The notes: generated from the letters alone by a model not told the origin. A stretch of DNA of 64,000 nt from an uncultured Collinsella sp. (GCA_900541145.1 UQIH01000012.1:6714-70713); one strand, 5' to 3'; shown: positions 11,072-60,557, counted from the first letter of the stretch. Numbers and translations: made by a program.

Positions 11072-11167
11072 GGGATCCCTTCCGCAAAAAACGATTCGGC
11101 AGATACATACAAAAAAGGCCCCACGGCTCCGCAGACGATGGGTCTACAGGGCTGCGGGGCCAGTGTG

Positions 11168-11905: not shown

Positions 11906-11956
11906 CTAACTACGCCGGGCATCCGTCGCATGACGTTGAGCCCGTAGCCTTTTATT

Positions 11957-13300
11957 TTACTCTTGAATGTCAAAGATGCTCTCTGACAAATCAAGATGAA
12001 GGAGCACTTTGGTGCCCTTGCCCGGCGCCGATTCGACACGCGTATAGGAGTGCGGCCCATAAAAGCGATGGATGCGCTCCGAAATATTGTGCATGGCCAC
12101 ACCGGCGCCGCCACCCTGGGGAGAGCTGGCGTCGGGACGGGCAGAGCGCTCGTCAAACAGTCTGGCGGCGGTACCCTCATCCATGCCCACGCCATTATCG
12201 GCCACGGCAATCAAGATTGCATCCTCGCCGTCTTGGTGAACGGTCACGTCGATCCTCAGGGCGTCGTCATCGCCCATACCATGACGTACGGCGTTCTCGA
12301 CAATCGGCTGGATCACGAACGCCGGCACCAGCGTATCTTCCACGTCCTCGGACACATCGAACGTCGCAAGCACGCGGTCCTCGCCAAAGCGGGCCTTCTC
12401 AAAGGTAAGGTAGCGCTTGGTCTGTGCAACCTCACGCGAGACCGGAATAAGCGATCCCGAGTTGTCGAGCGTGGCACGATAGAACGATGAGAACTCACGA
12501 AGCAGTTCGCGGGCCCGCAGCGGGTCGGTGCGCGTAAACGATGCAATGGTGTTCAGCGTGTTGAACAGGAAGTGCGGGTTAATCTGCGCTTGCAGCGCAC
12601 GCACCTCGGCGCGCGCCGTGAGTTCCTTTTGCACCTCGAGCTCGTGGATGGCGAGCTGCGTGGACAAGATCTCGGCAAAGCCCGAGGCAAGCGCATACTG
12701 GGTACGGTCGACGGCGCGCGGGGTCTTGTAGTAGAACTTGAGCGTGCCGACGGTACGATCACCCACCTTGATGGGGGCGATAATGCCGGCGGGAACTTGG
12801 TTGTGCGAGCCGTCCGAGCCCACGACATCCACCATACGGTTGAACGACTGCACGATGCCATGTTCGATAACGTAGCGTGTGGCAAGCGTGTGGATGGGAG
12901 AATCTGGCAGTAGTTTTTCCTCAAACTCTCCCGCGCAGGCAAGCACGTTGCCCTCGTCGGTGATGGCCACCGTCATGGCGCGCGTCTCGGGCAAAATGCG
13001 CCGGCACACCAAACGCGCCGACTCCTGCGTCAGACCGCCCTTAATGTCCTCGAGCATGGCCGAGGCCACCGAGAGCGTCTCCTCGGTGTACTGGGAGCGC
13101 ACCGAATCGGGATTGAGCGTCAAAAAGATAAAGATGCACAGAAAGATGCACAGCAGCGCGCAGGCAATCACCGTGGCGATCGGCTCGATACCGGTCACCA
13201 AGGCAAAAATAAAGTACACCAGCACGCAAATGGCGCAGGCAACGGCAATGATGCGAAAGATTGATATTGAACTATCGCGCTGGGCGCGGCGGTCGATCAT
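11957..13300 (-). CDS. LytS/YehU-type sensor histidine kinase (TM, GAF-like and His_kinase domains)
   Basis: Contains INPHFLFNTLNTIASF (LytS-type H-box) and a HATPase_c domain (VENAVRHG...DNGVGM). The start ATGA overlaps the stop of the upstream glycosyltransferase gene. Confidence 0.9.
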   Translation of the reverse strand: MIDRRAQRDSSISIFRIIAVACAICVLVYFIFALVTGIEPIATVIACALLCIFLCIFIFLTLNPDSVRSQYTEETLSVASAMLEDIKGGLTQESARLVCRRILPETRAMTVAITDEGNVLACAGEFEEKLLPDSPIHTLATRYVIEHGIVQSFNRMVDVVGSDGSHNQVPAGIIAPIKVGDRTVGTLKFYYKTPRAVDRTQYALASGFAEILSTQLAIHELEVQKELTARAEVRALQAQINPHFLFNTLNTIASFTRTDPLRARELLREFSSFYRATLDNSGSLIPVSREVAQTKRYLTFEKARFGEDRVLATFDVSEDVEDTLVPAFVIQPIVENAVRHGMGDDDALRIDVTVHQDGEDAILIAVADNGVGMDEGTAARLFDERSARPDASSPQGGGAGVAMHNISERIHRFYGPHSYTRVESAPGKGTKVLLHLDLSESIFDIQE

Positions 13301-22547: not shown

Positions 22548-23582
22548 ATGGCATACGGATACAACGACGGTGATCAACGGCGACAAAGCGTTCGCCTTGC
22601 TGGCCGTACCACGCCGACGCCCGGAAGTGCCACAAGCAGCAATCCGCAACGTCCTCAAGAGCAACCCAGGCCTTCGTCTCGGCAGCAGGCAAGCAAAACA
22701 CGGCAAAGTGGCCGTCCGCGCACGGGCACAAGCGCGCAGCAAGACAGCCGCTTAGGCGCGCGCACTCGACAGCATCAAGCCGAGGTTCCGCAACTGCGCC
22801 GCAACGGCGCACGTCAGCCCGGCATCCATATCAACCGCTTCTTTTCGCATCCCCAAGGCGGACGCGACGGCAAGCCCTACCGCTCGACATCGCACGTGAA
22901 TGCCCCCGCCCTGCCGGCTCGTCGACTTCGCCTCGCACTGTGCTCTATCCTCACCTGTCTGGTCTTTGTGCTTATGAGCTCCTGTATGTCCCACGGCTCG
23001 GCCGGTCTCGAGCCCACCGCCGAGGACAAGCTGCTCAAGGCCCCCGTCGCGCCCGGTTATTCTTTCGCCTTTTCGACCCCGCGCTCGCAATGGCAAGCCG
23101 GCACGATGCCCCATATCTATCAGATCGACCCCGCGTGGTCGGAGCTGCCTTACGCCGGCGGCACCATCCGCCAAAATGCCTGCGGGCCTACGTGCCTCAC
23201 CATGGTCTATATCTTTAAGACGGGACGCACCGATATGACCCCCGTCGATATGTGCGCGCTTTCCGAGGCGGGCAATTACGCCCCCACCGGTGCAACCGAA
23301 TGGTCGTTTATGACGAGCGGCGCGTGGCAGTTGGGACTTAACGGAACGGAGCTCCATAACGATCGCGACTCGATGACTCAGGCGCTGCGTTCGGGAGCGC
23401 CCGTCATCGCCGCCGTTCGGCCGGGCACCTTTACCAACGTGGGCCACTACATTGTGCTTTACGGTATTGACGACGCCGACCAGATTGGAGTCTTCGATCC
23501 CAACTCGGCCAGCCGCAGCGCCCGCCGCTGGGGCGCCGTAGAGGTCCTTAACGAAGTCGAAGCCATGTGGGCCTACTACTAG
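22548..23582 (+). CDS. membrane-anchored peptidase C39-like domain protein
   Basis: Long Arg/Gln/Pro-rich N-terminus and one TM segment (LALCSILTCLVFVLM). The C-terminal domain has QNACGPTCLTMVY and GHYIVLYG (Cys/His of the C39-like fold). Confidence 0.6.
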   Translation: MAYGYNDGDQRRQSVRLAGRTTPTPGSATSSNPQRPQEQPRPSSRQQASKTRQSGRPRTGTSAQQDSRLGARTRQHQAEVPQLRRNGARQPGIHINRFFSHPQGGRDGKPYRSTSHVNAPALPARRLRLALCSILTCLVFVLMSSCMSHGSAGLEPTAEDKLLKAPVAPGYSFAFSTPRSQWQAGTMPHIYQIDPAWSELPYAGGTIRQNACGPTCLTMVYIFKTGRTDMTPVDMCALSEAGNYAPTGATEWSFMTSGAWQLGLNGTELHNDRDSMTQALRSGAPVIAAVRPGTFTNVGHYIVLYGIDDADQIGVFDPNSASRSARRWGAVEVLNEVEAMWAYY

Positions 23583-25782: not shown

Positions 25783-26307
25783 ATGATGGATATCAACACC
25801 CTGCTCGCACTCGACCTTGCCGAGTACATCACTGCACTTGAGGCCCTCGCCGATCAAATGATGCTCGAGGAGCCCCGCGACATCGACCTGATGCGTCGCC
25901 GCAAGCTCGACACCGGCCGCGAATTCGCCGTCTGGAACTTCACCGTCGGCTACTGCATGAACGCAGCCGACGCCCTCTCCCTCCTGCGAGCCCAGGCCAA
26001 CGAAAACGCTAACGACGGCACCGCCGACCTCGCAACGATCAACAACAGCGCCGCGCGCCTGTGCGACTGGTTCTCGGGCGCCTTCGACGTCACCGGCAAA
26101 ATGGATGACACCACGGCAATCCTCGCCCACAGCCGCGACCTCTACGCCCAGGTAGAGACTCACGAACAGTTTGCAGCCCTCACCCGCGCCACCGAGCGCT
26201 ATCTGGTCCAGCTCCAATTTTGGGTTGACCGCCAGATTCCCTGGCCGGCTATTAGCGACTTCGTCCACGGCTACCGCCTACGCACAGAGAGCGGCGAGAC
26301 AAGGTAA
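25783..26307 (+). CDS. hypothetical protein
   Basis: ORF 3 nt after the previous stop with GGAGG upstream. Composition is host-like. No family recognised. Confidence 0.5.
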   Translation: MMDINTLLALDLAEYITALEALADQMMLEEPRDIDLMRRRKLDTGREFAVWNFTVGYCMNAADALSLLRAQANENANDGTADLATINNSAARLCDWFSGAFDVTGKMDDTTAILAHSRDLYAQVETHEQFAALTRATERYLVQLQFWVDRQIPWPAISDFVHGYRLRTESGETR

Positions 26308-26450
26308 CCAAGCAAGCAGCACCGACAACACCCCACCATCGGGATCCAAAGTAAGAATCAGAGGGCTGGAGACGCACCCAACAGCGTCCCCAGCCCCTTC
26401 GCAAAGTAGAGCACTGTTTCAGTGGCTTTGAGGCCTATTCGAACCTTTGC

Positions 26451-26537
26451 TATCTCCCAATTTTTGTATTTTTACGACAATATTATCTGCAAATTTTTGT
26501 ATGATTTTAGGCGATTCTATCTGTCAATTTTTGTCAT
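26451..26537 (+). promoter_or_regulatory. three direct repeats TATCTsnnAATTTTTGTmAT spaced 33-34 bp apart upstream of the ATPase gene
   Basis: Copies start at 26451, 26484 and 26518. The last one abuts the RBS and start codon at 26549. Confidence 0.45.
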
Positions 26538-26548
26538 TTGGGGGTTTA

Positions 26549-27910
26549 ATGCTACGCCGTAAGGTCACTGATAGGCTTTTGAGCTGGAAGAATAACTCCA
26601 ATAAGGCATTACTCGTTACTGGTGCGCGTCAGATTGGCAAGAGCTATGCGATTCGCGCGTTTGGACAAAGCAACTACGCTTCGTATTTTGAGGTCAATTT
26701 ACTACTCGATGTCGAAGCAAGGAATGCACTTGTTGGCGCAAAGAACTCCGTTGACTTTATCAACCGTGTAGCCCTTCTTGCGGATGCGCCGCTTGTTGAG
26801 GGCGATACGCTTGTCTTTGTCGATGAGATTCAGGAGTATCCGCAGATCGTTACACTCATGAAGGCGTTGGTCGAGGATGGGCGCTTTAGCTATGTCTTCT
26901 CGGGGTCTATGCTTGGGACTGAGTTTAAGGGGGTCTCTTCTTTTCCGGTGGGGTATGTAGAGCACATTGTTATGCGCCCGATGGATTTTGAAGAGTTTTG
27001 TTGGGCAAACAGCGTTAGCGAGAATGTGCTTGCAGGCATTCGCAGCTGCCTTGTCGAGAAACATCCTGTCGAAAACTATATTCATGAGGCGATGCTCAAG
27101 AACTATAGAGCTTATATCGTTTGCGGCGGCATGCCGGAGGTCGTTCAGAATTATATTGATTCGGGTTATTCGCTCGTGAGCACACGTGAGCTTCAAACTC
27201 AGCTGGTCGATCAGTACAAAAGCGATATCTCAAAATATGCATCGACTCGAGCGTTTAACGTTCGGTCGATTTTTGAGCAAATTCCCGTTCAGCTTGAGGC
27301 GGAGTCTCATCGCTTTGTCGTTTCGTCTCTGGGCGAGGGAGCTCGCCTTAAAAAATATGAGCAGGATTTCCTGTGGCTTGTTAACGCAGGTGTTGGATTG
27401 ATGGTCGCCAGGGTGACGGAGCCACGGAGTCCTCTCAAGAGGACGGAGAAAACGACGGCCTTCAAACTATATGAGTCTGATACAGGCATGCTCGCATCGC
27501 GGTACCCCGGCAGCACTGCACGCGCCGTCTATCTTGATATGAAAACTCCCAACCTTGGTGGTCTCTATGAGAACGTGGTCGCGCAGGAACTCGTTGCCCT
27601 CGGGGCGGATGCATGGTACTACCAAACGCGTGAGGTCGGTGAAGTTGACTTTGTGATCGAAGGCATCCACGGTCATGTTGTCCCAATCGAGGTCAAATCG
27701 GGCAAGAAAGTTCGAGCGCACGCGGCCCTCGATCGTCTGATGAGTGTGGGCGAGTACAAAATTCCCGATGCCGTTGTACTAAGCCACGAGAATCTCAGCA
27801 AAGAGGGCAAGGTTCTGTACGTTCCAATCTACATGACGTTTTGTCTCGATGAGTTTATGGAAAAGGATGACCCCAATAACGATTTCTCGTTCGCGCCCAT
27901 ATCTCTCTAG
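26549..27910 (+). CDS. AAA-family ATPase with C-terminal DUF4143-like domain
   Basis: Contains Walker A LLVTGARQIGKSY and Walker B LVFVDEIQ, with C-terminal EVDFVIE...PIEVKSG (restriction-endonuclease-like DUF4143). It is visibly AT-richer than its neighbours. Confidence 0.8.
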   Translation: MLRRKVTDRLLSWKNNSNKALLVTGARQIGKSYAIRAFGQSNYASYFEVNLLLDVEARNALVGAKNSVDFINRVALLADAPLVEGDTLVFVDEIQEYPQIVTLMKALVEDGRFSYVFSGSMLGTEFKGVSSFPVGYVEHIVMRPMDFEEFCWANSVSENVLAGIRSCLVEKHPVENYIHEAMLKNYRAYIVCGGMPEVVQNYIDSGYSLVSTRELQTQLVDQYKSDISKYASTRAFNVRSIFEQIPVQLEAESHRFVVSSLGEGARLKKYEQDFLWLVNAGVGLMVARVTEPRSPLKRTEKTTAFKLYESDTGMLASRYPGSTARAVYLDMKTPNLGGLYENVVAQELVALGADAWYYQTREVGEVDFVIEGIHGHVVPIEVKSGKKVRAHAALDRLMSVGEYKIPDAVVLSHENLSKEGKVLYVPIYMTFCLDEFMEKDDPNNDFSFAPISL

Positions 27911-27971
27911 CCATTTGAATCTGCAATCCAGCCCCGTCCACGCATCAATGCATTTCCCAAGGTGCTGCGCG

Positions 27972-28074
27972 TTTCGCGGCAAAGCCGCGAAAAAGCAAAG
28001 GGATAAGAAGCCGCAACAACCCCGCCCCCCATCCATCCCCAAAGCAACGCGCCTTTCGCGGCAAAGCCGCGAAA
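27972..28074. repeat. two copies of the hairpin TTTCGCGGCAAAGCCGCGAAA
   Basis: Identical 21-nt palindromic units lie at 27972-27992 and 28054-28074 within similar flanks (CGC-TTTCGCGGCAAAGCCGCGAAA-mAGC). Confidence 0.6.
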
Positions 28075-28145
28075 CAGCGACCGGGACAAAAGGCCCCCAC
28101 AACCACGTCCTTCATTCAGCCACACAATCCGAGGACGTAGTCGTA

Positions 28146-28270
28146 GCAGGATCTGAGGACTGACCTTCGCGGACATTCCGCAGGACGAAGGAACCCCCGC
28201 CGCACGTAGTGCGCAGCGGGGGTTCCTTCATGTCCGAGGACGTCCGCGAAGGTCAGCCCTCAGATCCTGC
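28146..28270 (-). repeat. ~125-nt extended hairpin immediately 3' of nifJ
   Basis: GCAGGATCTGAGGACTGACCTTCGCGGAC...GAAGGAACCCCCGC pairs with GCGGGGGTTCCTTC...GTCCGCGAAGGTCAGCCCTCAGATCCTGC. There is one internal loop. The structure begins 10 nt after the nifJ stop. Confidence 0.6.
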
Positions 28271-28280
28271 GGTGAGAGAC

Positions 28281-31820
<3,540 letters not shown>

Positions 31821-32165
31821 ATACCCCTCTCCTCTCATATAGGTATACAGGCCCCGGCGATCGCCGGGATGTTGGCGTGATGGGATTTACGCTGTTGCTT
31901 CCAATCATCTGGCAGGCAGGCTCAGCAGCAGGTACGTGGCGTGGAGAGAAGACATGCCGAGGCGAGGGACAGCTGATGCGCCCCACAGACCCGACCGCCC
32001 GTCTTGCACATGACCGAGCGCCGCAAAGGCCGCATGCCGGATGCTCCCGGGCACGCCCCGGCGATGGGAAGCGCCCGCAACGGAAATCCGCATGCGGGTT
32101 TATTGTACCCCGCCGTTAAGTGTAATTTCGACAAATATAGGCGGGCGGTAAAGGTTTACCTCGGG

Positions 32166-32700
32166 TGACCGCCAAAGGCCAGAATGGTCCCTCCATCCCC
32201 GGACGACTGGCTCTGACGCGCCAAGGAGTGTCCCCAAGTACCGGCAGGAAAGGAACGTCCCTAACTGCCGGCTAGAGGGCGCCGAGCAGGATGGCGTAGG
32301 TGGTGGATTCGCCGAGTTTGAGCTCGTCGCCGGGGTTGAGCTGGGCGGAGCGGCCGGGCTCTACTTGAATACACACACTCGTGGCCCCGTTTACCACCAC
32401 GGTGCCGTTAGTGGACGACAGGTCCTCGACAAACCATGCGCCAGACTCGTCGCACCAGATATGGGCATGGCGGGCCGAGACGTCGTCGGTGATGCCGCCC
32501 TCCCCCGTTGCCAGCGCGCCGATCTCAACGCCTTCCTCACTCGGCTGAATCCAGCGCGGGACGCTCACCACGTAGCCGTTTTGCACGCACAGCAGTCCCA
32601 GCGGATGCGCCGGCGCGACCTCGTGCTCGCCCGCGACCGAAGATGTGCTCAGCGAGCGCGGCGTCGACGTGTCGCCGCCACGGGTCGCATGAGCGCGGCG
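32166..32700. repeat. left copy of a ~535-bp diverged direct repeat (3' end of the FHA gene plus ~105 nt downstream)
   Basis: Aligns with 38902-39445 at a constant offset of 6736 nt up to a 9-nt indel. Identity is roughly 80-90% by eye. Confidence 0.8.
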
Positions 32701-32745
32701 GCTCGCCCGACTTGGAACTAAGGCGGGCGTGAGAGCAAACGGCAT
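32272..32745 (-). pseudogene. truncated FHA-domain gene fragment (C-terminal ~140 codons only)
   Basis: ...AHATRGGDTSTPRSL...HIWCDESGAWFVEDLSSTNGTVVVNGATSVCIQVEPGRSAQLNPGDELKLGESTTYAILLGAL parallels the C-terminus of 39008..39946. It has no N-terminal domain and no RBS. Confidence 0.7.
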
Positions 32746-33261
32746 AGGGAACGAATCTTGCGGATGTACTCCTCGACGTCAGGCAGGTAAGCCCCACGAA
32801 GTCACCGGGGAGGCCCAAGCGGCCCGGCACCACTTCCAGATTCTGACCAGGGCGAGTCGTTCGCCGGTGGCTGAAGGCTCGCTCCCACCCAAAAGGGGAG
32901 ATTCGCGTTGTTCCCCAATCGCTCTCGCATCTTTCATTTTGCTCGAGGTGGGCTATGAAAACTTTCCTGGTGAAAGGCGGCGATTGGTTTCCTTTCTTTC
33001 TAGAGGAGCGCGCCTGTAATCTGTTTTCATCCTAAATCAAGTTAAGATCGGACCTTCCAGAGGCAAGTCGACTCAAACTGCGAGGCTCCATGTTGGAATA
33101 AAGAGCGCTGTCGAAGTGCCAACAACACAAAGCTTGCCAGTCTCAAATAGAACCTTTTGGGAGTCCGATTGGGCCGCACACCGAATCCCCGCTGGTGGTT
33201 TTTTATAGCTGCGCGACAATAAACAAGGTTAGTGCCAGTCCAGCATGAAATTGAGGAACGT

Positions 33262-34620
33262 ATGCATTTTTTCTCAGTAAGTGATCGTCGTTACTGCTTC
33301 GATGAGGTCACTCGCAATTGCTTTCAGGTTGACCAAGCATCAGAAGATGCGCTTCGCATATTTGAAGCATCGGGAAGAACGGTCAACTCGAAGTTGCTAA
33401 CAAAGTCACTTGCTGCGAAAGGCTACGACCAAACGACCATAGCAGAACTTGAAGACGACATTGATGAGTATCAACGATTGTCTGAGCGGACTTTCTTAAC
33501 AAAAGACACGCCTCGAAAACTTAGATCCATCGAACTCCACGTTTCACATGCATGCAACCTTGGTTGTAGTTACTGTTTTGCCGGTAAAGGAGATTATGGA
33601 ACGTCTCCTCTGCTGATGACAGACGAGATAGCCTTCAAGGCGGTCGACTACCTCGTCGCAAGTTCATCGGAAAACGAAACGCTTGCGATCGTCTTTTTTG
33701 GTGGGGAACCCATGATTAACGAGCCGCTGATATGAAAAACGGTCGACTATTCAAAAAGAATATACCCCAATAGAAACTTTACCTATTCTATTACGACCAA
33801 CGGAACGCTTTTGAATGACACTGCTGTGAATTCTTTCAAGGAGCACGGGTTTTCTGTTCTGATTAGTCTCGATGGTACAGGATGCAAGCACGATGCATCG
33901 CGCCCGTACAAGACGGGAGGCGGCTCTTTCTCCGATATCGACAAAAACGTTCGTCGTTTTTCCGAGTCGTTCCCCTTCGGCGCAAGAGCGACCTTAACAA
34001 ATATTAACTGTAACCTTGTTGAAGACTATCTTCAGTTTAAAGAGATGGGCTTCAGAAGGATTTACTTCTCGCCCGTGAGCTCATTCGATGAGAATATCAA
34101 ACTCGACGAACACTCATTAAACAAAATCAGGGCGGGCCTAATAGATTTGGCGGATCAATATCTCAAACAGATTGATCAAGGGGAAAAGCCCTTGTTTAGA
34201 ACATTGAAAACTGCAGTTGATTTGATTATGAGCAACAGGATCGCCTTTGTCGGATGCGGGGCTGGCAGGCGTTTTATTTCCGTGACTCCCGAAGGGGACG
34301 TATACCCCTGTCACAGGTTTGTCGGGATGATGCGATTCAAAATGGGCAACATCGTCACCGGAATTGACGAAACTAGGTATATTGAAAACTGGAGTCAGGG
34401 TGTCGAAAAAAGAATTGACTGTACGGACTGTTGGGCTCGGTCTTTCTGTGGTGGGGGCTGTAGCTGGGAGGCTGCAGACGAGCACGGCTACTTGCCCAAG
34501 AGTCTACACCCTGCATCATGTGAATATAGAAAAATGTGCTACGAGATGGCTTTTGACCTTATTTCCCGCCACTCATCTTCGCAGGAGAAAAATCAACGAG
34601 AAGCTACTGTATCGGAATAA
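33262..34620 (+). pseudogene. radical SAM/SPASM peptide maturase with N-terminal RRE-like region, interrupted by one in-frame TGA (33733-33735)
   Basis: Contains CNLGCSYCF (CxxxCxxC), FFGGEPMINEPLI-TGA-KTVDYSKRIYPNRNFTYSITTNGTLL in the same frame, and the SPASM motifs CGAGRRFISVTPEGDVYPC and CTDCWARSFCGGGC. The track splits it into 33232..33735 and 33811..34620. GAGGAA lies upstream of ATG 33262. Confidence 0.85.
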
Positions 34621-34789
34621 GCGGTTCAGCGCATTGCTGTCACCATTGTGGAGGTGTTCGTTCTTCTGATTACCGTCTGCGAAGCTTATTGCTACATTCG
34701 CCGAAACCATTCTAGAAATATGGTGAACTAGACATCTTGGTTTGTTATACACAATATTGAGGTTTTTCTGCACTCAAAGGGAGGTAGTC

Positions 34790-34993
34790 GTGAAGCATAT
34801 TCATCCGATTAATCCAGGAAGTGGCGACGAGGCAGGCGTGAAGCCGATGTCTTTTGACTGCCTCTTGGGCATTACTGACATCTGTACTGTTTATGATAAA
34901 GCAGATGGCTGTGGTGCATACGATTACTGCGACTATGACATGGATGGCGGCAGCATCTGCGTTGTAGATCACTGTGGCATTGATCAAACGTAG
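34790..34993 (+). CDS. Cys/Asp-rich RiPP precursor-like peptide A1 (67 aa)
   Basis: GTG at 34790 lies 6 nt after AGGGAGG. Sequence: MKHIHPINPGSGDEAGVKPMSFDCLLGITDICTVYDKADGCGAYDYCDYDMDGGSICVVDHCGIDQT. It has 6 Cys and 11 Asp and lies directly downstream of the rSAM gene. Confidence 0.7.
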   Translation: MKHIHPINPGSGDEAGVKPMSFDCLLGITDICTVYDKADGCGAYDYCDYDMDGGSICVVDHCGIDQT

Positions 34994-35023
34994 TCTCTAA
35001 TTGGATTAAGGTGAGGAGCTGTT

Positions 35024-35203
35024 ATGAAGCATATCCATCCTGTTGGTTCAAATGAACATCCTCCCGTTGAGCCTTGTTGTCTTGGAGTTGATATATGCAA
35101 TTTTTACGACATCGCCGAGTGCCCTGTTGCGGATTGGTGCTATGTCGATAAAGAATCAAGCTGTGTTTTGCCAGCAGATTGGTGCGATCCAGTTGACGAG
35201 TAG
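35024..35203 (+). CDS. Cys/Asp-rich RiPP precursor-like peptide A2 (59 aa; below the ORF-track cutoff)
   Basis: ATG at 35024 lies 6 nt after GGTGAGGAG. Sequence: MKHIHPVGSNEHPPVEPCCLGVDICNFYDIAECPVADWCYVDKESSCVLPADWCDPVDE. It shares MKHIHP and the block C-LG-x-DIC-x-x-YD with A1. Confidence 0.7.
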   Translation: MKHIHPVGSNEHPPVEPCCLGVDICNFYDIAECPVADWCYVDKESSCVLPADWCDPVDE

Positions 35204-35281
35204 TTTTGTGGCTAGGAACTATTTGGTCCAATTCAGAATAAGATGGGAACAAATACCAAAATCTCGTGTCTGGGAGGAGTT

Positions 35282-35389
35282 ATGCCATTATTGCAAGGTC
35301 TCGTTGGATTAGCCTTTATACTTGCGTTATATCTGGCACCTTTTTTAATTCTATTCTTCATTATCCGACTCTTTCTTCGGAGAAAATAG
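35282..35389 (+). CDS. 35-aa hydrophobic peptide (single TM, basic C-terminus)
   Basis: ATG at 35282 lies 2 nt after GGGAGGAG. Sequence: MPLLQGLVGLAFILALYLAPFLILFFIIRLFLRRK. It is not in the ORF track. Confidence 0.4.
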   Translation: MPLLQGLVGLAFILALYLAPFLILFFIIRLFLRRK

Positions 35390-35454
35390 GAGTGTCACGC
35401 AAACATTAGCGTAGCTTTCTTCCAATATGAGCCGAGCATTGGCAAGTGGAATAA

Positions 35455-35504
35455 GAAGCCCGACCGTTCGCCACATGAAAGTGATCGGACGGGCTTCTCT
35501 ATTT
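35455..35504 (+). terminator. possible terminator of the peptide operon
   Basis: GAAGCCCGACCG ... CGGACGGGCTTC (12-bp stem with one mismatch) followed by TCTATTT. The T-tract is weak. Confidence 0.35.
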
Positions 35505-36089
35505 AACCCGGGCCGCCACCCATAGCGGCTTTCCAAGCGTATTCTCAGTGCAAAGCAATCGTCAGTTTAATCCTATGCGCTGATACCGCATTTCATTTGT
35601 TCGGCTCGAATTCTACGGCCTGGCAACCCTCGCACTCTCCGGCAAATGGATTGAACGCGAAGGCAGAGATGATGTGTGCGTGGACATCGAGGCTGCTGTA
35701 GGCAACATACTGGGACATGGACCCCCGCTGCGCGTGGTATGCGGCCCGGCATATTCATTGCCGTCCAACCCCGTGTAGTTGCAGCAAAGGGTGGAACCTC
35801 AATGCTCAGCTCATGTTGTCCGTGGGACACGAGAATCGTAAGTACACTTTGGTGCGATTCTCACGCTGATACTGAGCCACCTGGAATAAGATACGTCGCG
35901 ACAACACTTCGCTTCACCTCTGTCTCGACAAGATGACGTAGACTAAAGTTTCCTTTAGTAAGAGAACGAGAACTATATCTGAAAGCGTTGCGATGGCGTG
36001 AAGGCACCGAGTCCGAACCGCCTGAATGCTACGTGCATCTGCATCGCCTTTTTGTTATCTCTGCCAGTTGGGTAGCACTACACTTGTCA

Positions 36090-37742
36090 TCATTTACCCT
36101 GGTACATGCTGCCTAAATCCACTACCCCTTCTACCGCGCCGACCATCTCGTCATCGTGAGAGACAACGATGATCAGCTGGCTTTGCTTGTTGCGCTTAAC
36201 ATAGGCCGCAAGCTCGGCGCGGCTTACAGCGTCTAACCCAGTCGTGGGCTCGTCGAGTACCAAAACTGACGACTTGCGTGAAATCGCCGACCATAAGTAC
36301 ACTCGGCGCAGCTCACCGCCCGAAAGCGCGGAGCAACGTTTCCCGAGCAACTCCTTCACGCTGTTTTCCAGCGAAAGTAGGCCATCTACACCCCGGTGAT
36401 AGGAAGAAAAGGGCGTGTCGAAATACTCTAACAGCTCTTTCACCGTTTCGTCCGGCGCGAAGCACGACTGTGGGCAGCACGATATCTCTCTCGCACGTAT
36501 GTAATCCAAGTCGCATTCTTCGATTGGCACGCCGTTGTATTTTACTTTGCCTTTCGATGAGTATAGCCCGAGCATCAAGTAAAGAAGTGACGTCTTGCCT
36601 CTTCCGTTTTCCCCAACTATGCAATATGTACCAGGACCGGAAAACTTGAAAGAAAACCCGCCGAGGACCTCTCGGACAGATCCGTCTGGAAGGGCAACCG
36701 AGAATTCCAAATCAGATACCGAAATGTCATTTATTTCATCGAGTTTAGCTAAATCGGTCCGATTCCACCCCGATCTCTCCTTTTCTCTCGTCGCGATAGC
36801 CGTCCTATCCCATGATGCTTTGGCATCTTGATAGGATTTGAACAATGACATCATACTTTTCAAAGTCTTAAAGAGAACCGCGAAGTATGTACCGATGATA
36901 GTGTACTCGCCTATTGACATAGTTCCGTTAATGATTCGTACTCCGGAAACAACAAGTATCACCGCTTGAAACAACGCTGCGAAAAGACCATCGAGCGATG
37001 TCAGAGAATATGATAGCTTTCCGGAGCGCAAAACTTTGGGAAAATAGCTCTTAAACCCAGCGTCGAGCGCTTGTTCGCTCTTGCCGTACGAAGATGCCAG
37101 TTGAATGTTGAGAATCTGATTAAGCTGCGATGCAATTGCGGCGTAAAAGGCGCTGTCCGCCTCTTTCTTCTCATACGTGACCCTATACAAAAGTTTCCTC
37201 AACCCAGTAATTACACAGAAATACACGATGAGGAGAATGATGGAAAACACCGCGAGAGTTGAATCAATTGACCATATGATAAGCAATACGATGGGAATAG
37301 CTACAATGGACAGCGGCGCACTGATGAAATTCGCCAAAACGAAGGATGAGACCACGCTGGAGTCGGAAATAATCCGTTGCGTTGTATAGGCTGGATCGAT
37401 GGTCCGACTCACCAAGTAATCGTCTCTTTCAAAACGCAAGACGGCCTCCCTGAGAAGATCAAAGGAAAGTCTCGTGCTTATGCGAATGGAAAGTGTTCCT
37501 GCAAAATAAGTAAAGAGGGTGGAGAAAACTCCTATTGACGCAACCAGGAGTGCGAAGAGTGCGGCGTCTCTTTCGCTGCGGTTACCGAGAAGAAAATCTA
37601 AAAATTTTCCGTTCACGTATGGCATGGCATAGGAGAGAGCGGTTCCAATCACCGTGATAGCAATGAAGACGAAAGCCCCTTTTGCTCTGATGAACCTCGA
37701 GAGAACGCATCGAATCAAGGAAGGCCCCAATCTACCCGCCAC
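36090..37742 (-). CDS. ABC exporter, fused permease/ATPase, with no N-terminal peptidase domain
   Basis: Six-TM N-terminal half, Walker A GENGRGKTSL, signature LSGGELRRVYLW and Walker B VLVLDEPTTGLD. It is low-GC and ends in TGA TGA. Confidence 0.85.
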   Translation of the reverse strand: MAGRLGPSLIRCVLSRFIRAKGAFVFIAITVIGTALSYAMPYVNGKFLDFLLGNRSERDAALFALLVASIGVFSTLFTYFAGTLSIRISTRLSFDLLREAVLRFERDDYLVSRTIDPAYTTQRIISDSSVVSSFVLANFISAPLSIVAIPIVLLIIWSIDSTLAVFSIILLIVYFCVITGLRKLLYRVTYEKKEADSAFYAAIASQLNQILNIQLASSYGKSEQALDAGFKSYFPKVLRSGKLSYSLTSLDGLFAALFQAVILVVSGVRIINGTMSIGEYTIIGTYFAVLFKTLKSMMSLFKSYQDAKASWDRTAIATREKERSGWNRTDLAKLDEINDISVSDLEFSVALPDGSVREVLGGFSFKFSGPGTYCIVGENGRGKTSLLYLMLGLYSSKGKVKYNGVPIEECDLDYIRAREISCCPQSCFAPDETVKELLEYFDTPFSSYHRGVDGLLSLENSVKELLGKRCSALSGGELRRVYLWSAISRKSSVLVLDEPTTGLDAVSRAELAAYVKRNKQSQLIIVVSHDDEMVGAVEGVVDLGSMYQGK

Positions 37743-38057
37743 AAAACATCAATCACTGATACCTTACACCTCAACACAACAGGAGCGAAGATTTGCCAAT
37801 GAGACTGCTTTAAGATTGCCTTGGGCCAATACGGTCTCAAGCTCTTCCTACAAGAGAGTCGGAATCGGACATCTCCTCCGACGAATCTGGCAATCGGGCG
37901 ATTGAAATATCTTTTTCAACCGCCCGATTGCCACAATAGATTGGAGCGTCCGCCCGCAAACGACCTCGTTTTACACCCACCAAATCCTTTGCCTTTTGTC
38001 GCCTAGGCTAGAAAAATCGCTCGAAATAACGCAACCGGCCTGCTCGCTTGAAGAAAC

Positions 38058-38773
38058 CTAAGCCCGTAACGTAGATGTGCAAACTTCCGAAACGCCTTGC
38101 GCGGCATAGTGCGTATAAACTTCGTCAACCGCCTCAGAAATATCTGAGTATCGCGCCGGGTCAAAAGCATACGATGTCGCAGCTATACCCTGCACCCATT
38201 CGGAACGCGGATTAATTGAATAGCCACACAGCATCATCATACATGCATCTAGACCTGATTTCCCAAGTATCCGACGTATTGATGAGAGCATCGCGGGTCG
38301 CCCCTGCACCATCGTCGTCACCCCTATTAGCAGTATTTACCGTTTTTCTCTAAATGCGTATCGCCACCCTTAAGAATACGAAGTGTTTTATCCAGACCCG
38401 ATTGTCCTCCATCTCAAACGAAGGGATAAGGAATCTCATCCGGAATCGGCAGTAACGGAGGATTCACAACGACAAGCGAAAAACATGAGTCATCTCTCAG
38501 AGGGGAGTAAAGGCTCCCCTCAAGCACCCTAGTTTCGTCATCCAAAGAGTTGATGGCAGTGTTTTTCTTACAAAGGTCGACAACAAAAGGGTTGATTTCT
38601 ACAGATGTTACATCCATGCCACAGTTGGTAAGTATCAGGCCCTGTATTCTGGGGCCAGAACACAAATCGAGAGCCTTCCGTGCGCTCTGCGGTGTAAGGC
38701 GCCAATCTCAGCAAATCTGTCCCACAATACTGCGCTGAAGAACAAGACGGAACCCCTGAGCCAAACTCCCCTA
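38058..38773 (-). pseudogene. decayed class I SAM-dependent methyltransferase (HemK/MTS-like)
   Basis: Contains LDLCSGPRIQG (motif I) and VVVNPPLLP (NPPY-like), then PFV-TGA-DGGQSGLDKTLRIL in frame, a second in-frame TGA at 38708-38710, and a 1-nt frameshift near 38330 (EKNGKY / LLIGVTT). The track shows fragments 38414..38665 and 38058..38321. Confidence 0.7.
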
Positions 38774-38901
38774 TACCTTATTAAGGCTAAGACAGGCAAG
38801 TTCACGCACCCGGCATATTCCAGAATAACATCCTATTGTTTTAGATGCTCTACAAGCATGAACAGCCGCGAATCGGAAAGATCTTCTAGTTTCGCCCCGA
38901 C

Positions 38902-39445
38902 TGACCGCCAAGGGCCAAAATGGCCCCTCCATCCCCGGGCGACTGGCTCTGGCGCGCCGAGGAGTGTCCCCAAGTGCCGGCAGAAAAGGAACGTCCCTAA
39001 CTGCCGGCTAGAGGGCACCGAAGAGAATGGCGTAGGTAGTGGATTCGCCGAGCTTGAGCTCGTCGCCGGGATTGAGTTGGGCGGAACGGCCGGGCTCGAC
39101 CTGAATGCAGACGCGCGTGGCCCCGTTTACCACCACGGTTCCGTTGGTGGACGACAAGTCCTCGACGTGCCAGATATTTTGAGCATCGCACCAGATATGG
39201 GCATGGCGGGCCGAGACATCGTCGCCGACGTCGGTAATATCGCCCTCACCAGTGGCCAGCGCGCCAATCTCAACACCCTGCTCACTCGGCTGAATCCAGC
39301 GCGGGGCGCTCACGACAAAACTGTTATGCACGCGCAGCAAGCCCAAGGGGTGCGCCGGGGCGGGTTCGCGTTCGCCCGCAGTCAGCGACATGCCAAGCGA
39401 ACGCGGCGTGGATGCGCCTCCGCCACAGGTCGCGTGTGCGTAGTC
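38902..39445. repeat. right copy of the diverged direct repeat
   Basis: See 32166..32700. This copy forms the 3' end of the intact FHA-domain gene plus its downstream region. Confidence 0.8.
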
Positions 39446-39946
39446 GATGGCATAGTTCACCGAGGACCGCACATCCGCCGAACAACCGACGGCGACAAAC
39501 AGCACCAGCACGGCCTCGGCGCGCTCGGCGGGCATGAGTTCCGCCGCCTGGGACAGGCGATCGAGCGCGTTGCGATAGAGATTCGTGTCCTGGTGGCACT
39601 CTTCGAGCGCGCGTACCATCGGTTCACCTGCAGGACCGCACACCATATTGATCACAGCCGTGGAGTCCATGGGATTGCGCTGGCGCAGGGCCAGTTGCAA
39701 CATAATACGCGCAGCCGAGGTACCGTATTCGGCAAAGTAGCGCTGCTGAAGCGTGCCGACCGGCGCGCGAACGATAAAGCGGGAAACCCAAGAGCGATCG
39801 GCGGCTCGGCTCTGCGGGCTGCGGCCGTCGGCGAGCGGACGGGACGAAAGCACCAAACCGCACAGCTCGATATGGCTCAGATGCGCTGCGCGCTTAAAGA
39901 TGTCAAACATGGCCCCGCATGGGGTGAGCTCAACTTGAGATGCCAT
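39008..39946 (-). CDS. FHA domain-containing protein with an uncharacterised N-terminal domain
   Basis: C-terminal FHA motif (ARHAHIWCD...WHVEDLSSTNGTVVNG...L.PGDELKLG). It lies 3 nt downstream of the kinase gene stop. Confidence 0.85.
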   Translation of the reverse strand: MASQVELTPCGAMFDIFKRAAHLSHIELCGLVLSSRPLADGRSPQSRAADRSWVSRFIVRAPVGTLQQRYFAEYGTSAARIMLQLALRQRNPMDSTAVINMVCGPAGEPMVRALEECHQDTNLYRNALDRLSQAAELMPAERAEAVLVLFVAVGCSADVRSSVNYAIDYAHATCGGGASTPRSLGMSLTAGEREPAPAHPLGLLRVHNSFVVSAPRWIQPSEQGVEIGALATGEGDITDVGDDVSARHAHIWCDAQNIWHVEDLSSTNGTVVVNGATRVCIQVEPGRSAQLNPGDELKLGESTTYAILFGAL

Positions 39947-39949
39947 GAC

Positions 39950-41794
39950 CTAGGCCTCCTTGGTCGTAGAAATAGAATCGGACGATACTTCGACAGGTCC
40001 GCCAAAAGTACGGGCAGCTGCGGCTCCACCGGCAAGCGGAGTCGCCATCTGGGCTTTTGTGCGTCGCGGTGCCGAAACGGGAAGTTCAAAGGCAAAGCCC
40101 ATCGCAAGCAAAAACCACGTAAGCGTATAGGTTGCAACCAGAGCGGCAACAAGGCCGCCCATCACGGCGCGTTGGGAAAATACGCTACATGCAGCCACAA
40201 CCAGCACCGGAACCTCGCAGGCAGAAAGCGCAAGCACACCCTGCAGGAAGCCCGAGCGCCGATCGCGCGCAAGTGCCCCCGCGGCAACGCCGGCTATGCC
40301 TGGCAGCGCCAACGCCAGTGCGGCAATAATACCCGGTAGCGACCCAGACCACACGAGCGATCCCAAAGTCGCCGTCACGCGAGCGCCCGACGCCAGCAGC
40401 GCGGCCGAAACCACGACCACAGCCCAAACCACGCCACAGACGACCGTCGCGCCGACCATCAGCGCGCGACGAACCACACGGCCAGACGCATCCATGGGGC
40501 ACGGCGTGAGCGGCTCGCCGCGGAGCGAACGACCGACATTTTGCGCATAGTGGTCACAAAACGCCGAGAGCGCCGCCTTGACCGCCGCCGGCTCGGGACG
40601 ATCTTTTTGATGGCTGGACAGACAGGCCATCACCACGTCGAACAGCTGGGCATCGACAAACGCCAGCGCATCGCGTAGCTCTTCGGAATCCGGCTCAAGC
40701 CCTAGCTGCTGGGCCTGCTCGGCCGCGGCGAGCGCCACATCGGGCTCACGACGAAGCAGCTGAGTCAAATCACAACCGGGCGCATGGGCACCAATAGGAT
40801 AGTCGGGCCGCGTGTCCATCTTGAGACGGTAGGGGCTCGCGATGTCGCGCGTCTTTTTGCGCGAACCCGAGGCACCCGAAGTACTCGGCGCGGCTTCGTA
40901 TGGCGCGACGCCGGCAATGAGCTCGTAAACCGTGCTTGCCGCGGCGTATACGTCAATCGCCGGCGACATACGCAAAGCGCGCAGGTCGGGAATATCGTCG
41001 GTGAGCATCTCGGGCGGGGCATAGGCAACCGTCGCGCGACGCAGCGTGGCATAGCGCTCCGTAAACGACGCCTTGCCGCCGGTACCGGCCACGGCCGACG
41101 CAGGCTCGAGCGCCAGCGACGAGCCAAAGTCGATCAGGCACAGGTCAAAGGTGCCCTCGGCAAGCTGCCGGTCAAGCGGTAGACGCGCCGTACGCACCAT
41201 AATATTAGCGGGCGAGATATCGCGATGGACAAAGCCCTCACCCACCAGGCTCATACGGCAGAGCAGATCGAACAGGTCGCGACCCAGACGCGCCGCCACA
41301 AGCGGCGACAGGCGTCCGGCATCGTCCACGGCGAGTCGCGAGCGCAAGCGGGCGAGCGTCTCGCCCTCGACCCATTCCATGACAATTGCAGGCACACCGT
41401 CAACCTCGCCCCAGCCATAGAGGCGGGGAAAGCCCTTAAGGCCCGAAAGGGCGCGATGGCATTCGTATTCCTCGCGAAATGCCGCTTTGAACTTGGCGAC
41501 CAGCGACTCATGGGCGGCATCGTCGTCAAACTCATCGCGCGTCGGCAAGATGAGCTGTTTGAGTGCTACGTCCTCGCCTTGGGCGTTGACAGCACGCGTC
41601 ACGCGGCCGATACCGCCACGGCGCATGGTGGCATCGTCGGCAAACAGTATCGTAAAACGACGCAGATAGGCAGGCAGTTCGTCCTGACCGAGCGCAATGG
41701 CCGGCTCAAACCCGTCGACACGCGCCAGGCGCAGGCCGACCATGGGATCGCGACCGAGCGATTGTGGTGTGGTGGATGCAAGATCGGTCATCAT
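39950..41794 (-). CDS. Ser/Thr protein kinase with a polytopic C-terminal membrane region
   Basis: Contains VALKQL (catalytic Lys), HRDISPANIMV, DFGSS and APE. The C-terminal ~200 aa contain four to five hydrophobic segments. Confidence 0.9.
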   Translation of the reverse strand: MMTDLASTTPQSLGRDPMVGLRLARVDGFEPAIALGQDELPAYLRRFTILFADDATMRRGGIGRVTRAVNAQGEDVALKQLILPTRDEFDDDAAHESLVAKFKAAFREEYECHRALSGLKGFPRLYGWGEVDGVPAIVMEWVEGETLARLRSRLAVDDAGRLSPLVAARLGRDLFDLLCRMSLVGEGFVHRDISPANIMVRTARLPLDRQLAEGTFDLCLIDFGSSLALEPASAVAGTGGKASFTERYATLRRATVAYAPPEMLTDDIPDLRALRMSPAIDVYAAASTVYELIAGVAPYEAAPSTSGASGSRKKTRDIASPYRLKMDTRPDYPIGAHAPGCDLTQLLRREPDVALAAAEQAQQLGLEPDSEELRDALAFVDAQLFDVVMACLSSHQKDRPEPAAVKAALSAFCDHYAQNVGRSLRGEPLTPCPMDASGRVVRRALMVGATVVCGVVWAVVVVSAALLASGARVTATLGSLVWSGSLPGIIAALALALPGIAGVAAGALARDRRSGFLQGVLALSACEVPVLVVAACSVFSQRAVMGGLVAALVATYTLTWFLLAMGFAFELPVSAPRRTKAQMATPLAGGAAAARTFGGPVEVSSDSISTTKEA

Positions 41795-58836: not shown

Positions 58837-60084
58837 ATGTCAGAACAGCCACTAATTAGCGGAAGAGGCACGTGTTGGAAAGACAAGAGATCACCTAACA
58901 CTTATCGCTATTATTTTTCCCTTGGAGTCAAGGACCCTAAGACGGGGCGCTACAAACGATCCCCAACTTATACAATTCGTTGCAAGACTAAAACAGAAGC
59001 TAAGGCTGCAATGCAGGCCAAGCTGGCTGAAATCAACTCCTCTGGCACGATCACTAAAACTAAAAAGCCCACTTTGCTTGCGTCCTACTGCTGGGCCTTT
59101 CATGAAAATAGGGACACCGAGCTTGCGCCAACGAGCTATGAAAGAGAAGCGTACGATTGCAGGCATATCGAAGACCTATTCGGTGCGTTTCAGACAATTG
59201 AGGGGCTAACTCCCGATCTAATCGAAGAAACATATGCCGAAGCTCGTCGTACGGGAAAATACAAACCATCAGAGCTTGTACGAATCAATGCGAAACTGCG
59301 TCAGATTTTGTCGAATGCGGTCGCAAAGAGAATAATTGACCGAAACCCCTGCGCTACCGTTCATGTTCGCAGACCACGCAACAAAAGAGAATCACTGGCA
59401 ATCGACCAAGTAGCTACCCTATGCACACGTCTTCAACACATTGAGCTCACCGCCGAAGCTGTTGGTACACTAGTACTAGTGTATACGGGTATGCGGAAAG
59501 GCGAGATGCTGGGCCTCGAATGGCGCGATTGGGACCCTGCCAATAAAACCTTGAAAATTGACAGGCAGTACACCAACGACCATGAACTGAGGGCACCCAA
59601 GTCACAAGAAAGCCAACGCAAAATCCCCGTTGGAGAAACCTTGGCCGAACGTCTTCAATCATGGTCAGCCATACAAAAAGAGCTCCTGGCCTCTCTGGGG
59701 CTGTCCCAGACTGGCAGCACTCCCATCATTAGCGATATTGCTGTCGAGCAAGGGATCCCTACTGTCTGTCACATGAAAAACTACATCTTCAACCATTGGT
59801 TTCGCGATTTCGCAGTTAGCTGCAATCTTGGAATCTATGAGCCGAACAATTCGACTGGCGGAAAACTATATAAGGGCATCTGCCCGCATCAGCTCAGGCA
59901 TTGTGTAAGCACTTTTATGCTGGCGAACGGATCGGACGTTAGAAGCGTGCAAGGTATTCTTGGCCACGCGGACCCCAATATCACGCTCAAAACGTATACA
60001 AGCCTCGTTCAACAATCAGAAATAAAAGCAGTTAAAGGCTACGAAGCCTTCATCAACGCCTATATACAGAGAAGCGAGAAATAG
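58837..60084 (+). CDS. int: tyrosine-type site-specific integrase
   Basis: C-terminal catalytic motifs GMRKGE (Arg), HQLRHCVSTFM (H-x-x-R) and GHADPNITLKTY (His...Tyr). Confidence 0.9.
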   Translation: MSEQPLISGRGTCWKDKRSPNTYRYYFSLGVKDPKTGRYKRSPTYTIRCKTKTEAKAAMQAKLAEINSSGTITKTKKPTLLASYCWAFHENRDTELAPTSYEREAYDCRHIEDLFGAFQTIEGLTPDLIEETYAEARRTGKYKPSELVRINAKLRQILSNAVAKRIIDRNPCATVHVRRPRNKRESLAIDQVATLCTRLQHIELTAEAVGTLVLVYTGMRKGEMLGLEWRDWDPANKTLKIDRQYTNDHELRAPKSQESQRKIPVGETLAERLQSWSAIQKELLASLGLSQTGSTPIISDIAVEQGIPTVCHMKNYIFNHWFRDFAVSCNLGIYEPNNSTGGKLYKGICPHQLRHCVSTFMLANGSDVRSVQGILGHADPNITLKTYTSLVQQSEIKAVKGYEAFINAYIQRSEK

Positions 60085-60548: not shown

Positions 60549-60557
60549 GTGGTAAAC

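Follow-up and report, generated by a model that had tools for sequence, protein, structure and literature searches.

The closest described relatives of the peptide-modification cassette considered here are two radical S-adenosylmethionine (rSAM) systems. In the PapA/PapB system of Paenibacillus polymyxa, which yields freyrasin, PapB links Cys to the beta-carbon of Asp in six Cys-X3-Asp motifs and accepts spacings of n = 0-6 (PMC9413430). In the SCIFF/CteB system of Clostridia, the maturase comprises an N-terminal domain, an rSAM core and a SPASM domain with a CX2CX5CX3C motif. At the level of genome organization, comparison can be made with those islands placed by tyrosine or serine recombinases at the 3' ends of tRNA, tmRNA or protein-encoding genes, which combine foreign composition, gene-end repeats and empty sites. 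The cassette addressed here occupies a ~6.2-kb low-GC segment within a 64,000-nucleotide (nt) stretch of DNA from an uncultured Collinsella sp. (GCA_900541145.1, UQIH01000012.1:6714-70713; hereafter, the window), lying between a gene encoding an FHA-domain protein and the gene encoding PFOR. This segment is a horizontally acquired island, ordinary in kind as such, that probably consists of a two-precursor ranthipeptide cassette, one junction of which is illegitimate and the spread of which relied on homologous recombination.

Like PapA/PapB, the cassette in the window encodes six Cys-Xn-Asp motifs per precursor, and PapB represents the top NCBIfam match of its maturase. Unlike PapA/PapB, it includes two paralogous precursors rather than one, with mixed Cys-Asp spacings of 2-5, adds a 35-residue membrane peptide and a peptidase-less ATP-binding cassette (ABC) exporter, is known from its genes alone and is found in an actinobacterial gut anaerobe. 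The domain layout of CteB appears to recur in the window maturase. By contrast to SCIFF/CteB, however, the window precursors match no SCIFF model, Asp is conserved as a partner by each Cys and the cassette is a strain-variable island. As for the 3'-end integrating islands, foreign composition, gene-end repeats and empty sites are all seen in the window, yet here there is no recombinase, the repeats are long (~545 nt) and diverged (77-90% identity), the gene-proximal repeat copy is resident, the other, orphan copy is a mosaic and no such repeats accompany related cassettes. Homology-facilitated illegitimate recombination, together with flank-mediated homologous spread, is what we take to be the closest named process. 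In the former, as appears to be the case in the window, one side is a homologous anchor and the other a fixed illegitimate junction; in the latter, as in the window, crossover points vary within the anchor and the diversity of the insert is low. No paper linking Collinsella to a characterized ranthipeptide or other rSAM-modified, ribosomally synthesized, post-translationally modified peptide (RiPP) was found in the literature.

When assessed in 400-nt windows, GC content was 0.60-0.67 outside the block and 0.42-0.55 inside, with transitions at ~32,900-33,100 and ~38,700-39,000, while in 1-kb windows, the corresponding values were 0.62-0.65 and 0.46-0.50. Overall, GC content decreases from 62-66% to 44-50% in the region spanning ~33,020-38,900. 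At third codon positions, GC content was 0.38-0.55 in the cassette genes and 0.68-0.88 in neighboring host genes. The decrease from 65-70% to 38-45% reported in a first-pass annotation of the window, based on hand counts, is thus real, although the sliding-window values reveal it to be milder. The low-GC block is bracketed by direct repeats of ~545 nt that a repeat finder and pairwise alignment resolved into 32152-32430 versus 38888-39166 (89% identity; offset 6736), 32450-32497 versus 39186-39233 (90% identity) and 32481-32695 versus 39226-39440 (77% identity; offset 6745), with the change in offset reflecting a single 9-nt indel. The two direct repeats of ~535 bp, with an offset of 6736 and one 9-nt indel, described in that annotation were accordingly recovered. 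Read on the minus strand, each repeat covers the FHA gene from codon ~172 as far as the stop codon (39008-39010 in the right repeat; 32272-32274 in the left repeat), and continues through a tail of ~105 nt and then ~11 nt more. As had also been noted, the right copy completes an intact 312-residue gene, while the left copy is an orphan. The intact gene contains PF00498 and is found behind a 614-residue Ser/Thr kinase gene; the orphan corresponds to a 157-residue PF00498-containing open reading frame (ORF). The first 20 codons of this ORF belong to the island, and its ATG is not preceded by any purine-rich sequence of the Shine-Dalgarno kind.

The different parts of the window were compared by BLAST with 80 loci, obtained by using the FHA protein to scan GTDB species, with a single genome representing each species, each locus being 98-99% identical in that protein. 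Nearly all are from Collinsella, with the remainder being from gut bacteria or Coriobacteriaceae, and many are metagenome-assembled genomes, such that frameshifts in these may be assembly errors. The host of the window is itself a member of the Collinsella aerofaciens complex. The island is present in ~38 of the 80 loci, where it is 98.3-99.6% identical, and ~32 loci offer clean empty sites. In 15 such loci (termed E1), the 105-nt tail of the window likewise follows the FHA gene and is joined scarlessly to the sequence left of 32166, namely, the PFOR flank. At least 15 others (E2) contain a different tail of 55 nt, and two (E3) contain a 136-nt hairpin tail; in 30 island-free loci, PFOR directly adjoins the FHA tail. 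The existence of scar-free empty sites in close relatives, in which a single FHA gene is joined to the PFOR flank, confirms the horizontal acquisition that had been proposed earlier.

Direct repeats of a gene end could also be generated had the FHA gene undergone tandem duplication long ago; low-GC DNA would then have entered between the two copies, and empty sites would reflect deletion. Still, not one of the 80 loci contains the orphan without the island, that is, the arrangement that the first-pass annotation had considered would speak for an ancient tandem paralog. Moreover, deletion between 80%-identical repeats would leave chimeras, whereas the empty sites are resident-type throughout and precisely joined, and the orphan groups with the orthologous allele of another lineage. 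As such, a tandem origin is barely credible. Deletion between the repeats as the source of the empty sites was likewise ruled out, given that the tails of these sites fit the proximal type until the last ~12 nt.

Comparison of the two repeat copies revealed which of them is foreign. The 5' part of the intact FHA gene is 98.0-99.6% identical to its counterparts in island-free and island-bearing relatives alike, and the 3' ends found on intact FHA genes in both occupied and empty loci are 96.3-98.9% identical to the right copy in the window. The orphan copy, on the other hand, shares 79-82% identity with resident FHA 3' ends. The expressed FHA gene is of the resident type (A-type) in 80 of 80 loci. 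A protein-level search with the orphan matched almost only short orphan ORFs, together with one frameshifted full-length FHA gene bearing an orphan-type C-terminus (P0052; contig L081). L081 corresponds to an island-free site in another Collinsella lineage, in which the 5' part of the FHA gene is 86.8% identical to the window, and the 3' part is 93.5% identical to the orphan and 81% identical to the resident copy. In this contig, the FHA 3' end (D-type) is followed by a 136-nt tail and then by PFOR at 97.8% identity, with no island. A third lineage, represented by L102, carries yet another FHA allele. The kinase gene is 94.6-99.6% identical to that of the window across the 80 Collinsella loci, and only 83.5-83.8% identical in L081 (83.5%) and L102.

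When compared to each other, the two FHA copies in the window present a synonymous divergence (dS) of 0.71 and a ratio of nonsynonymous to synonymous divergence (dN/dS) of 0.15, indicating that they diverged as functional genes in separate lineages; in-place decay as the source of orphan divergence is ruled out by the same ratio and by the near or complete identity (99-100%) of window-type orphan alleles found in a dozen genomes that represent GTDB species. As to the grouping of the two copies, a point raised in the first-pass annotation, the right copy falls with host relatives and the left copy with the L081 allele. The intact gene therefore kept its own 3' end, with the orphan being a piece of the FHA gene of a different lineage.

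A resident proximal copy and a foreign orphan are the reverse of what an element bringing a replacement 3' end would leave behind, as had been envisaged in the first-pass annotation. In that explanation, a site-specific element targeted the FHA 3' end and provided its own replacement, thereby displacing the original host 3' end, now seen as the orphan, with the integrase subsequently being lost. Direct repeats of a gene 3' end do indeed bracket a segment of foreign composition, empty sites exist and the PFOR-side part of the mosaic orphans described below is probably the former 3' end of the recipient, albeit obtained via homologous exchange. The proximal copy, however, is not only resident but also matches the empty sites at 96-99% identity and equals the flanks in diversity. 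The duplication, furthermore, reaches ~545 nt upstream of any possible crossover, itself found beyond the gene end, such that duplication is not needed to restore the FHA gene. The repeat ends include no evident identical core, with the longest identical blocks shared by the repeats (32 nt) being internal, neither an integrase nor a remnant thereof was found and such flanking repeats are missing from the homologous cassettes of two other lineages. Integration of this sort is hence highly improbable, and the earlier claim is not retained.

The junctions were next considered. The duplicated unit spans FHA codon ~172 to flank position +11. At the proximal junction, ~11 nt of the conserved PFOR-side flank (GTCAGTCGGGG) are read before the island begins, while the distal copy presents the allelic GTCACCCGAGG, followed by normal flank. 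L065 and L017 present a second proximal junction, in which ~60 nt of an E3-like tail are joined to the island at 38004; these loci lack island nt 1-897 and hence the part that contains the methyltransferase remnant. No recombinase domain was detected in any island ORF upon searching Pfam and NCBIfam, with leftover ORFs being considered at E<=1, in agreement with the earlier statement that no recombinase gene remains. Similarly, no plasmid relatives of the island were detected among 72,556 plasmids (blastn, distant mode), no structured RNAs were detected in the region spanning 31800-39600 (Rfam, E<=0.1), and promoter and terminator scans returned counts at chance level.

Such junctions could also be explained were a site-specific element inserted at a short core sequence, found where the PFOR-side flank starts, to have left a D-type host by aberrant excision, carrying with it the FHA 3' half in the manner of specialized transduction, and to have reintegrated at this core in an A-type host using an integrase acting in trans or since lost. 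This would reproduce the pure haplotype, namely gene, tail, ~11-nt core, island, D-type fragment and tail, core and PFOR, as well as the precise empty sites. In addition, the spacer is repeatedly hit by insertion sequences (IS), and a tyrosine recombinase gene is found 20 kb away in another low-GC patch. The putative core is, however, only ~8/11 identical between the junctions, a different proximal junction exists in L065 and L017, the three cassette lineages compared share no conserved ends and no recombinase is linked to the island. Aberrant excision is thus unlikely. It is unlikely, too, that the cassette is, or was until recently, a small integrase-less site-specific element that targets a short core in the spacer, captured the FHA 3' half of a former host through aberrant excision and is moved by a recombinase acting in trans; were this true, the spacer would serve as a dedicated landing pad, with the FHA fragment having been carried along by transduction, as it were.

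Homologous recombination is instead suggested by the orphans themselves. Orphan sequences were painted at 143 sites separating the A- and D- (L081) types, considering 23 distinct alleles from 33 haplotypes (32 loci and the window). All alleles are D-type on the island side, scattered single-site exceptions aside. Past this side, each orphan either stays D-type or turns A-type or a third type, with the point of transition differing. Thus, the orphans of L089, L007, L082, L085 and L086 are D-type throughout, including a D-type tail, those of L065, L024, L090 and L048 switch in mid-domain and the window allele switches from D to A near the stop codon. Across 30 complete occupied haplotypes, nucleotide diversity (pi) was 0.0027 for the maturase gene, 0.004 for the segment beside the orphan (33261-32746), 0.0065-0.007 for the ABC gene and the precursors, 0.018-0.023 for the kinase and PFOR genes, 0.095 for the 3' part of the orphan and 0.23 for the distal tail. 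A value of 0.015 was obtained for the island segment nearest the FHA gene (38004-38901). Diversity in the cassette core is, accordingly, ~3-10 times below that of the flanks and, given its pi value, the segment beside the orphan can be considered as traveling with the cassette. At the same time, the distance of the flanks to the window is the same for occupied and empty genomes. Together with cassette diversity being below that of the flanks, this indicates that the island is younger than the lineages carrying it and not strictly vertically inherited. The varied switch points would be expected were the island to spread into island-free genomes by homologous recombination, with the right-hand crossover sometimes pairing the orphan of the donor with the FHA 3' end of the recipient. 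Both variable crossover points and an insert less diverse than its flanks, as expected of homologous recombination, were thus observed.

The possibility that the orphan is functional, either as a stand-alone FHA protein that modulates kinase signaling in island carriers or as a silent cassette serving, upon recombination into the expressed gene, to change the phosphothreonine-reading domain of the latter, should be considered as well. Most carriers contain the orphan as an open ORF of 157-160 residues, which public records label an FHA protein; orphan alleles are, moreover, highly diverse, and some full-length FHA alleles include a few orphan-type residues (P0026). Yet an open frame is expected in any case, since the parts of the orphan come from functional alleles. 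The lack of a Shine-Dalgarno-like sequence before the ATG, the existence of variants that are frameshifted or that read through the stop codon (P0001, P0004, P0005 and P0010), the 5' deletion in four alleles (L001, L019, L025 and L046) and the uniformly A-type nature of the expressed gene also argue against this proposal, making a function for the orphan very doubtful.

Turning to the cargo, the island is predicted to contain a coherent ranthipeptide-type rSAM RiPP cassette with two precursors. The maturase includes a CX3CX2C rSAM motif (CNLGCSYC, residues 98-105; PF04055, 57.7 bits, cut-off 29.5) and a CX2CX5CX3C SPASM motif (CTDCWARSFCGGGC, residues 387-400; PF13186, 24.1 bits, cut-off 21.5; TIGR04085, 61.6 bits, cut-off 27). 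The closest solved structure is that of CteB (5WGG; E=6.9e-64; residues 80-430). At the N-terminus, alignment to the SCIFF maturase model TIGR03974 covers residues 13-431, while no PqqD/RRE Pfam match was obtained and the CteB alignment begins only at residue 80. Apart from PapB and SCIFF, NCBIfam matches included nif11 rSAM (259 bits) and QhpD. All named families matched below cut-off, and scores below the cut-offs of both the PapB and SCIFF families place the maturase in a separate subfamily. Indeed, relatives of the maturase share 73%, 67%, 56%, 52%, 48% and 44% identity, before a SCIFF-type bulk is reached at 30-37%.

In the window, the maturase gene is interrupted by a private TGG-to-TGA nonsense mutation. 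Codon 158 is TGG in the 32 other maturase copies of equal length, and a clean 452-codon ORF is found in 31 of 36 other copies, with the remaining five containing different frameshifts or stops; L083 offers an example of an intact allele with TGG at codon 158. As such, the split maturase reported in the first-pass annotation is real in the window but is a strain-private event and not a feature of the island. Because the equal-length copies encode Trp at this position and most copies are intact, selenocysteine incorporation or other recoding at the TGA was ruled out. The pathway is, therefore, probably dead in the window strain, though intact in most relatives. Maturase variants of 468 residues (P0062), considered as possibly pointing to a second location, were rejected, as they are found in the same context.

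Precursors A and B are paralogous, share the leader MKHIHP and present Cys-Asp spacings of 2-5. In precursor A, none of the six Cys or of the Asp paired with them varies over four lineages, at identities down to 37%, while in precursor B, five Cys and their partner Asp are invariant over four lineages, at identities down to 46%. Precursor A was called as a 67-residue gene in ten of ten other genomes, and a public assembly collection lists precursor B, in exactly this sequence, in 31,834 blocks. Leader cleavage is predicted to occur immediately ahead of a conserved SFDC in precursor A and P(C/Y)C in precursor B. Neither precursor matched any NCBIfam family, including the SCIFF precursor model. 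The chemistry predicted for the cassette is based on the cross-linking of Cys-X3-Asp motifs by PapB in a spacing-tolerant manner (PMC9413430). In this scenario, the rSAM/SPASM enzyme would bind the short MKHI-type leaders of both precursors, with a 5'-deoxyadenosyl radical then serving to form, in the manner of PapB, a bond between each of the ~six Cys thiols and one carbon of an Asp close by. The ABC exporter would secrete the products, and the 35-residue membrane peptide could act as an accessory or immunity factor. The exporter contains no N-terminal peptidase domain, with models of peptidase-containing bacteriocin ABC proteins aligning only from model positions ~140-160. The cargo listed in the first-pass annotation, namely an rSAM maturase, two precursors, a hydrophobic ORF and an ABC exporter, was thus upheld, with the coordinates of precursor A and the tiny ORF being corrected. 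The methyltransferase remnant included in the same list was also found, albeit only as an 83-residue ORF with weak matches (PF05175, 22.7 bits, cut-off 23; NF011529, E=2e-9).

The same cassette, i.e., maturase, precursors A and B, a hydrophobic ORF of 39-40 residues and an ABC exporter, is found in L092 (73% maturase identity) and in L093-L096 (67%). In the cassettes of L092 and L093, the hydrophobic ORF is placed just as in the window, and the ABC exporter gene of the window is ~71% identical at the nucleotide level to that of L092. These related cassettes present a GC content of 45-50% within hosts of 62-69% GC, and occupy unrelated sites, being found beside an IS21 element and ClpX or between an ECF transporter gene and murB. 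No direct repeats of at least 25 nt flank the L092 or L093-L096 cassettes, and no common end sequences were detected among the three cassette lineages. A more distant relative, L099 (41% maturase identity), also encodes A-like and B-like peptides. The L092 cassette is flanked by IS21 and IS110 elements.

Taken together, these observations favor a history in which the cassette would have come into Collinsella from a lower-GC source and not as a self-integrating element. On one side, it would have been joined to the 3' half of a D-type FHA gene and, on the other, to the end of an A-type FHA-PFOR spacer. Minimally, this would call for one homologous exchange and one illegitimate junction between A-type and D-type chromosomes. 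The composite would then have spread through A-type lineages by homologous recombination in the flanks, with a right-hand crossover inside the orphan pairing with the FHA 3' end of the recipient to generate a new mosaic orphan.

Several points weigh against such spread by homologous recombination and the assignment of the cassette. Neither a D-type genome with the cassette nor an orphan-free A-type genome with the cassette was found, such that the order of events is deduced. When the D-type N-terminal half served as query, only the island-free contexts L081 and L102, as well as the frameshifted assemblies L101, were recovered. The 80 loci were, moreover, picked by similarity to the A-type FHA protein, with D-type and other lineages barely being sampled. 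The ~11-nt flank, duplicated imperfectly at both junctions, can be read as a weak att core, and the second proximal junction in L065 and L017 requires an extra event. As for the cargo, the architecture appears to be that of PapB/CteB-type ranthipeptide systems, although both curated family cut-offs were failed, as the maturase scored 271.4 bits (E=1e-80) against PapB model NF047865 (cut-off 340) and 265.5 bits against SCIFF maturase model TIGR03974 (cut-off 425). Finally, the cross-linking chemistry is predicted wholly by analogy, and no leader protease was identified in the island.

Collinsella aerofaciens is among the commonest human gut actinobacteria, and competition or signaling in the gut could be influenced by a product of two peptides that varies among strains and would bear as many as twelve thioether rings. 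The locus would clearly illustrate, in a natural setting, how homologous recombination moves a biosynthetic island between close lineages; here, the mosaic FHA fragment records each crossover and the att-like duplication is a recombination scar. It also calls for caution in genome scans, since duplication of a gene 3' end beside foreign DNA does not, by itself, provide evidence of a site-specific element. The features of the island and of the adjoining host DNA are listed in Table 1.

Table 1. Features of the low-GC island and adjoining host genes (window positions)
Feature	Position	Strand	Remarks
PFOR gene, host flank adjoining the FHA tail in empty sites	28281-31838	-	POR_N, POR, PFOR_II, EKR, TPP_enzyme_C
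Distal direct repeat: orphan FHA 3' fragment, D-type, and 105-nt tail	32152-32745	-	ORF 32272-32745, 157 residues; tail 32166-32271
GC-rich 275 nt, then low-GC region upstream of maturase gene	32746-33261		GC-rich part 32746-33020
rSAM/SPASM thioether maturase (predicted), 452 codons	33262-34620	+	Inactivated by TGA at 33733-33735 (codon 158)
Precursor A, 67 residues	34790-34993	+	GTG start after GGGAGG; six Cys, each then Asp
Precursor B, 59 residues	35024-35203	+	Six Cys, each then Asp, spacing 2-4
Hydrophobic peptide, 35 residues (MPLLQGLVGLAFILALYLAPFLILFFIIRLFLRRK)	35282-35389	+	Preceded by GGGAGGAG; read from sequence
Spacer, tiny ORF to end of ABC gene	35391-36089		GC ~0.53; no Pfam match at E<=1
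ABC exporter, 550 residues, membrane domain and ATPase	36090-37742	-	PF00664, PF00005; convergent with maturase operon
Island part nearest the FHA gene, with degenerate methyltransferase fragment	38004-38901	-	ORF 38414-38665
Proximal direct repeat: resident FHA 3' end, 105-nt E1 tail, ~11 nt of PFOR-side flank	38888-39445		Tail 38902-39007
Intact FHA-domain gene, 312 residues, resident A-type allele	39008-39946	-	PF00498 at residues 236-300
Ser/Thr protein kinase gene, 614 residues, resident, upstream of FHA gene	39950-41794	-	PF00069, E=4.7e-17

Of the remaining island sequence, ten leftover ORFs yielded nothing meaningful in Pfam at E<=1, and the GC-rich stretch at 32746-33020 matched neither the island-free loci, the other cassettes nor the rest of the window, and gave no Pfam match. 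In L082, an IS21-family element encoding an rve transposase and IstB (10999-13280) is found between the precursor genes and the ABC exporter. At 37888-37933, ~150 nt upstream of the start of the ABC exporter, the window contains a 20-nt inverted repeat that is 95% complementary, with a 6-nt spacer. This repeat is conserved among carriers and could be an operator or a hairpin. What appeared to be hypervariability at 37,500-38,000 proved to be an artefact of N-masked stretches in two loci and of the existence of two haplotype groups. Specifically, N runs in L084 and L085 mask the region upstream of the ABC gene (~37650-37960) and inflate the diversity peak, while unmasked loci fall into two haplotype groups, with ~10 differing sites near 37,950-38,010. 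Outside the island, ~10 kb away, the window encodes a 344-residue Peptidase_C39_2 protein (22548-23582, plus strand) that could be a candidate leader protease. The gene is host-resident, given that a fragment of it is also found in the island-free L102.

The FHA-PFOR spacer exists as three alleles of 105, 55 and 136 nt, the last containing a long perfect hairpin, that have only the last ~55 nt in common; these are found in the window (38902-39007 and 32166-32271), L006, L012 and L081. The extra parts of these alleles resemble small hairpin insertions, similar to miniature inverted-repeat transposable elements or terminators. In seven loci (L010, L014, L043, L045, L062, L063 and L080; locus position ~10963), an IS of ~1.6 kb is found 22 nt past the FHA stop codon. 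This insertion ends in inverted repeats of 15 nt (ATATGAGCAGGACAT in L063). Its location within the first hairpin of the 105-nt tail recurs across many independent genomes, such that the hairpin looks like a preferred target. L018 and L087 contain an insertion of similar size after the orphan tail, with that of L087 encoding a 433-residue HTH_23/28/38 product.

Examination of the broader neighborhood revealed the segment containing PFOR (28010-32169) to be 97.5-97.9% identical even to lineages in which the kinase-FHA operon is only 83-88% identical, reflecting either very strong constraint or a recombinational sweep across Collinsella species; DNA further downstream of PFOR in L102 is 91% identical. 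The tyrosine recombinase gene mentioned above (415 residues; PF00589, E=2.5e-19; 58837-60084, plus strand) lies ~20 kb from the island in a low-GC patch at 59000-61000 (GC 0.48-0.49). It is probably part of a separate mobile element, with nothing tying the recombinase to the RiPP island. Just past PFOR, a further low-GC patch (26000-28000) includes a gene encoding an AAA_14/DUF4143 ATPase (26447-27910, plus strand; GC 0.49). This gene is found in L081, L085, L088, L090, L091 and L103, with other genes being present instead elsewhere, making this another variable spot.

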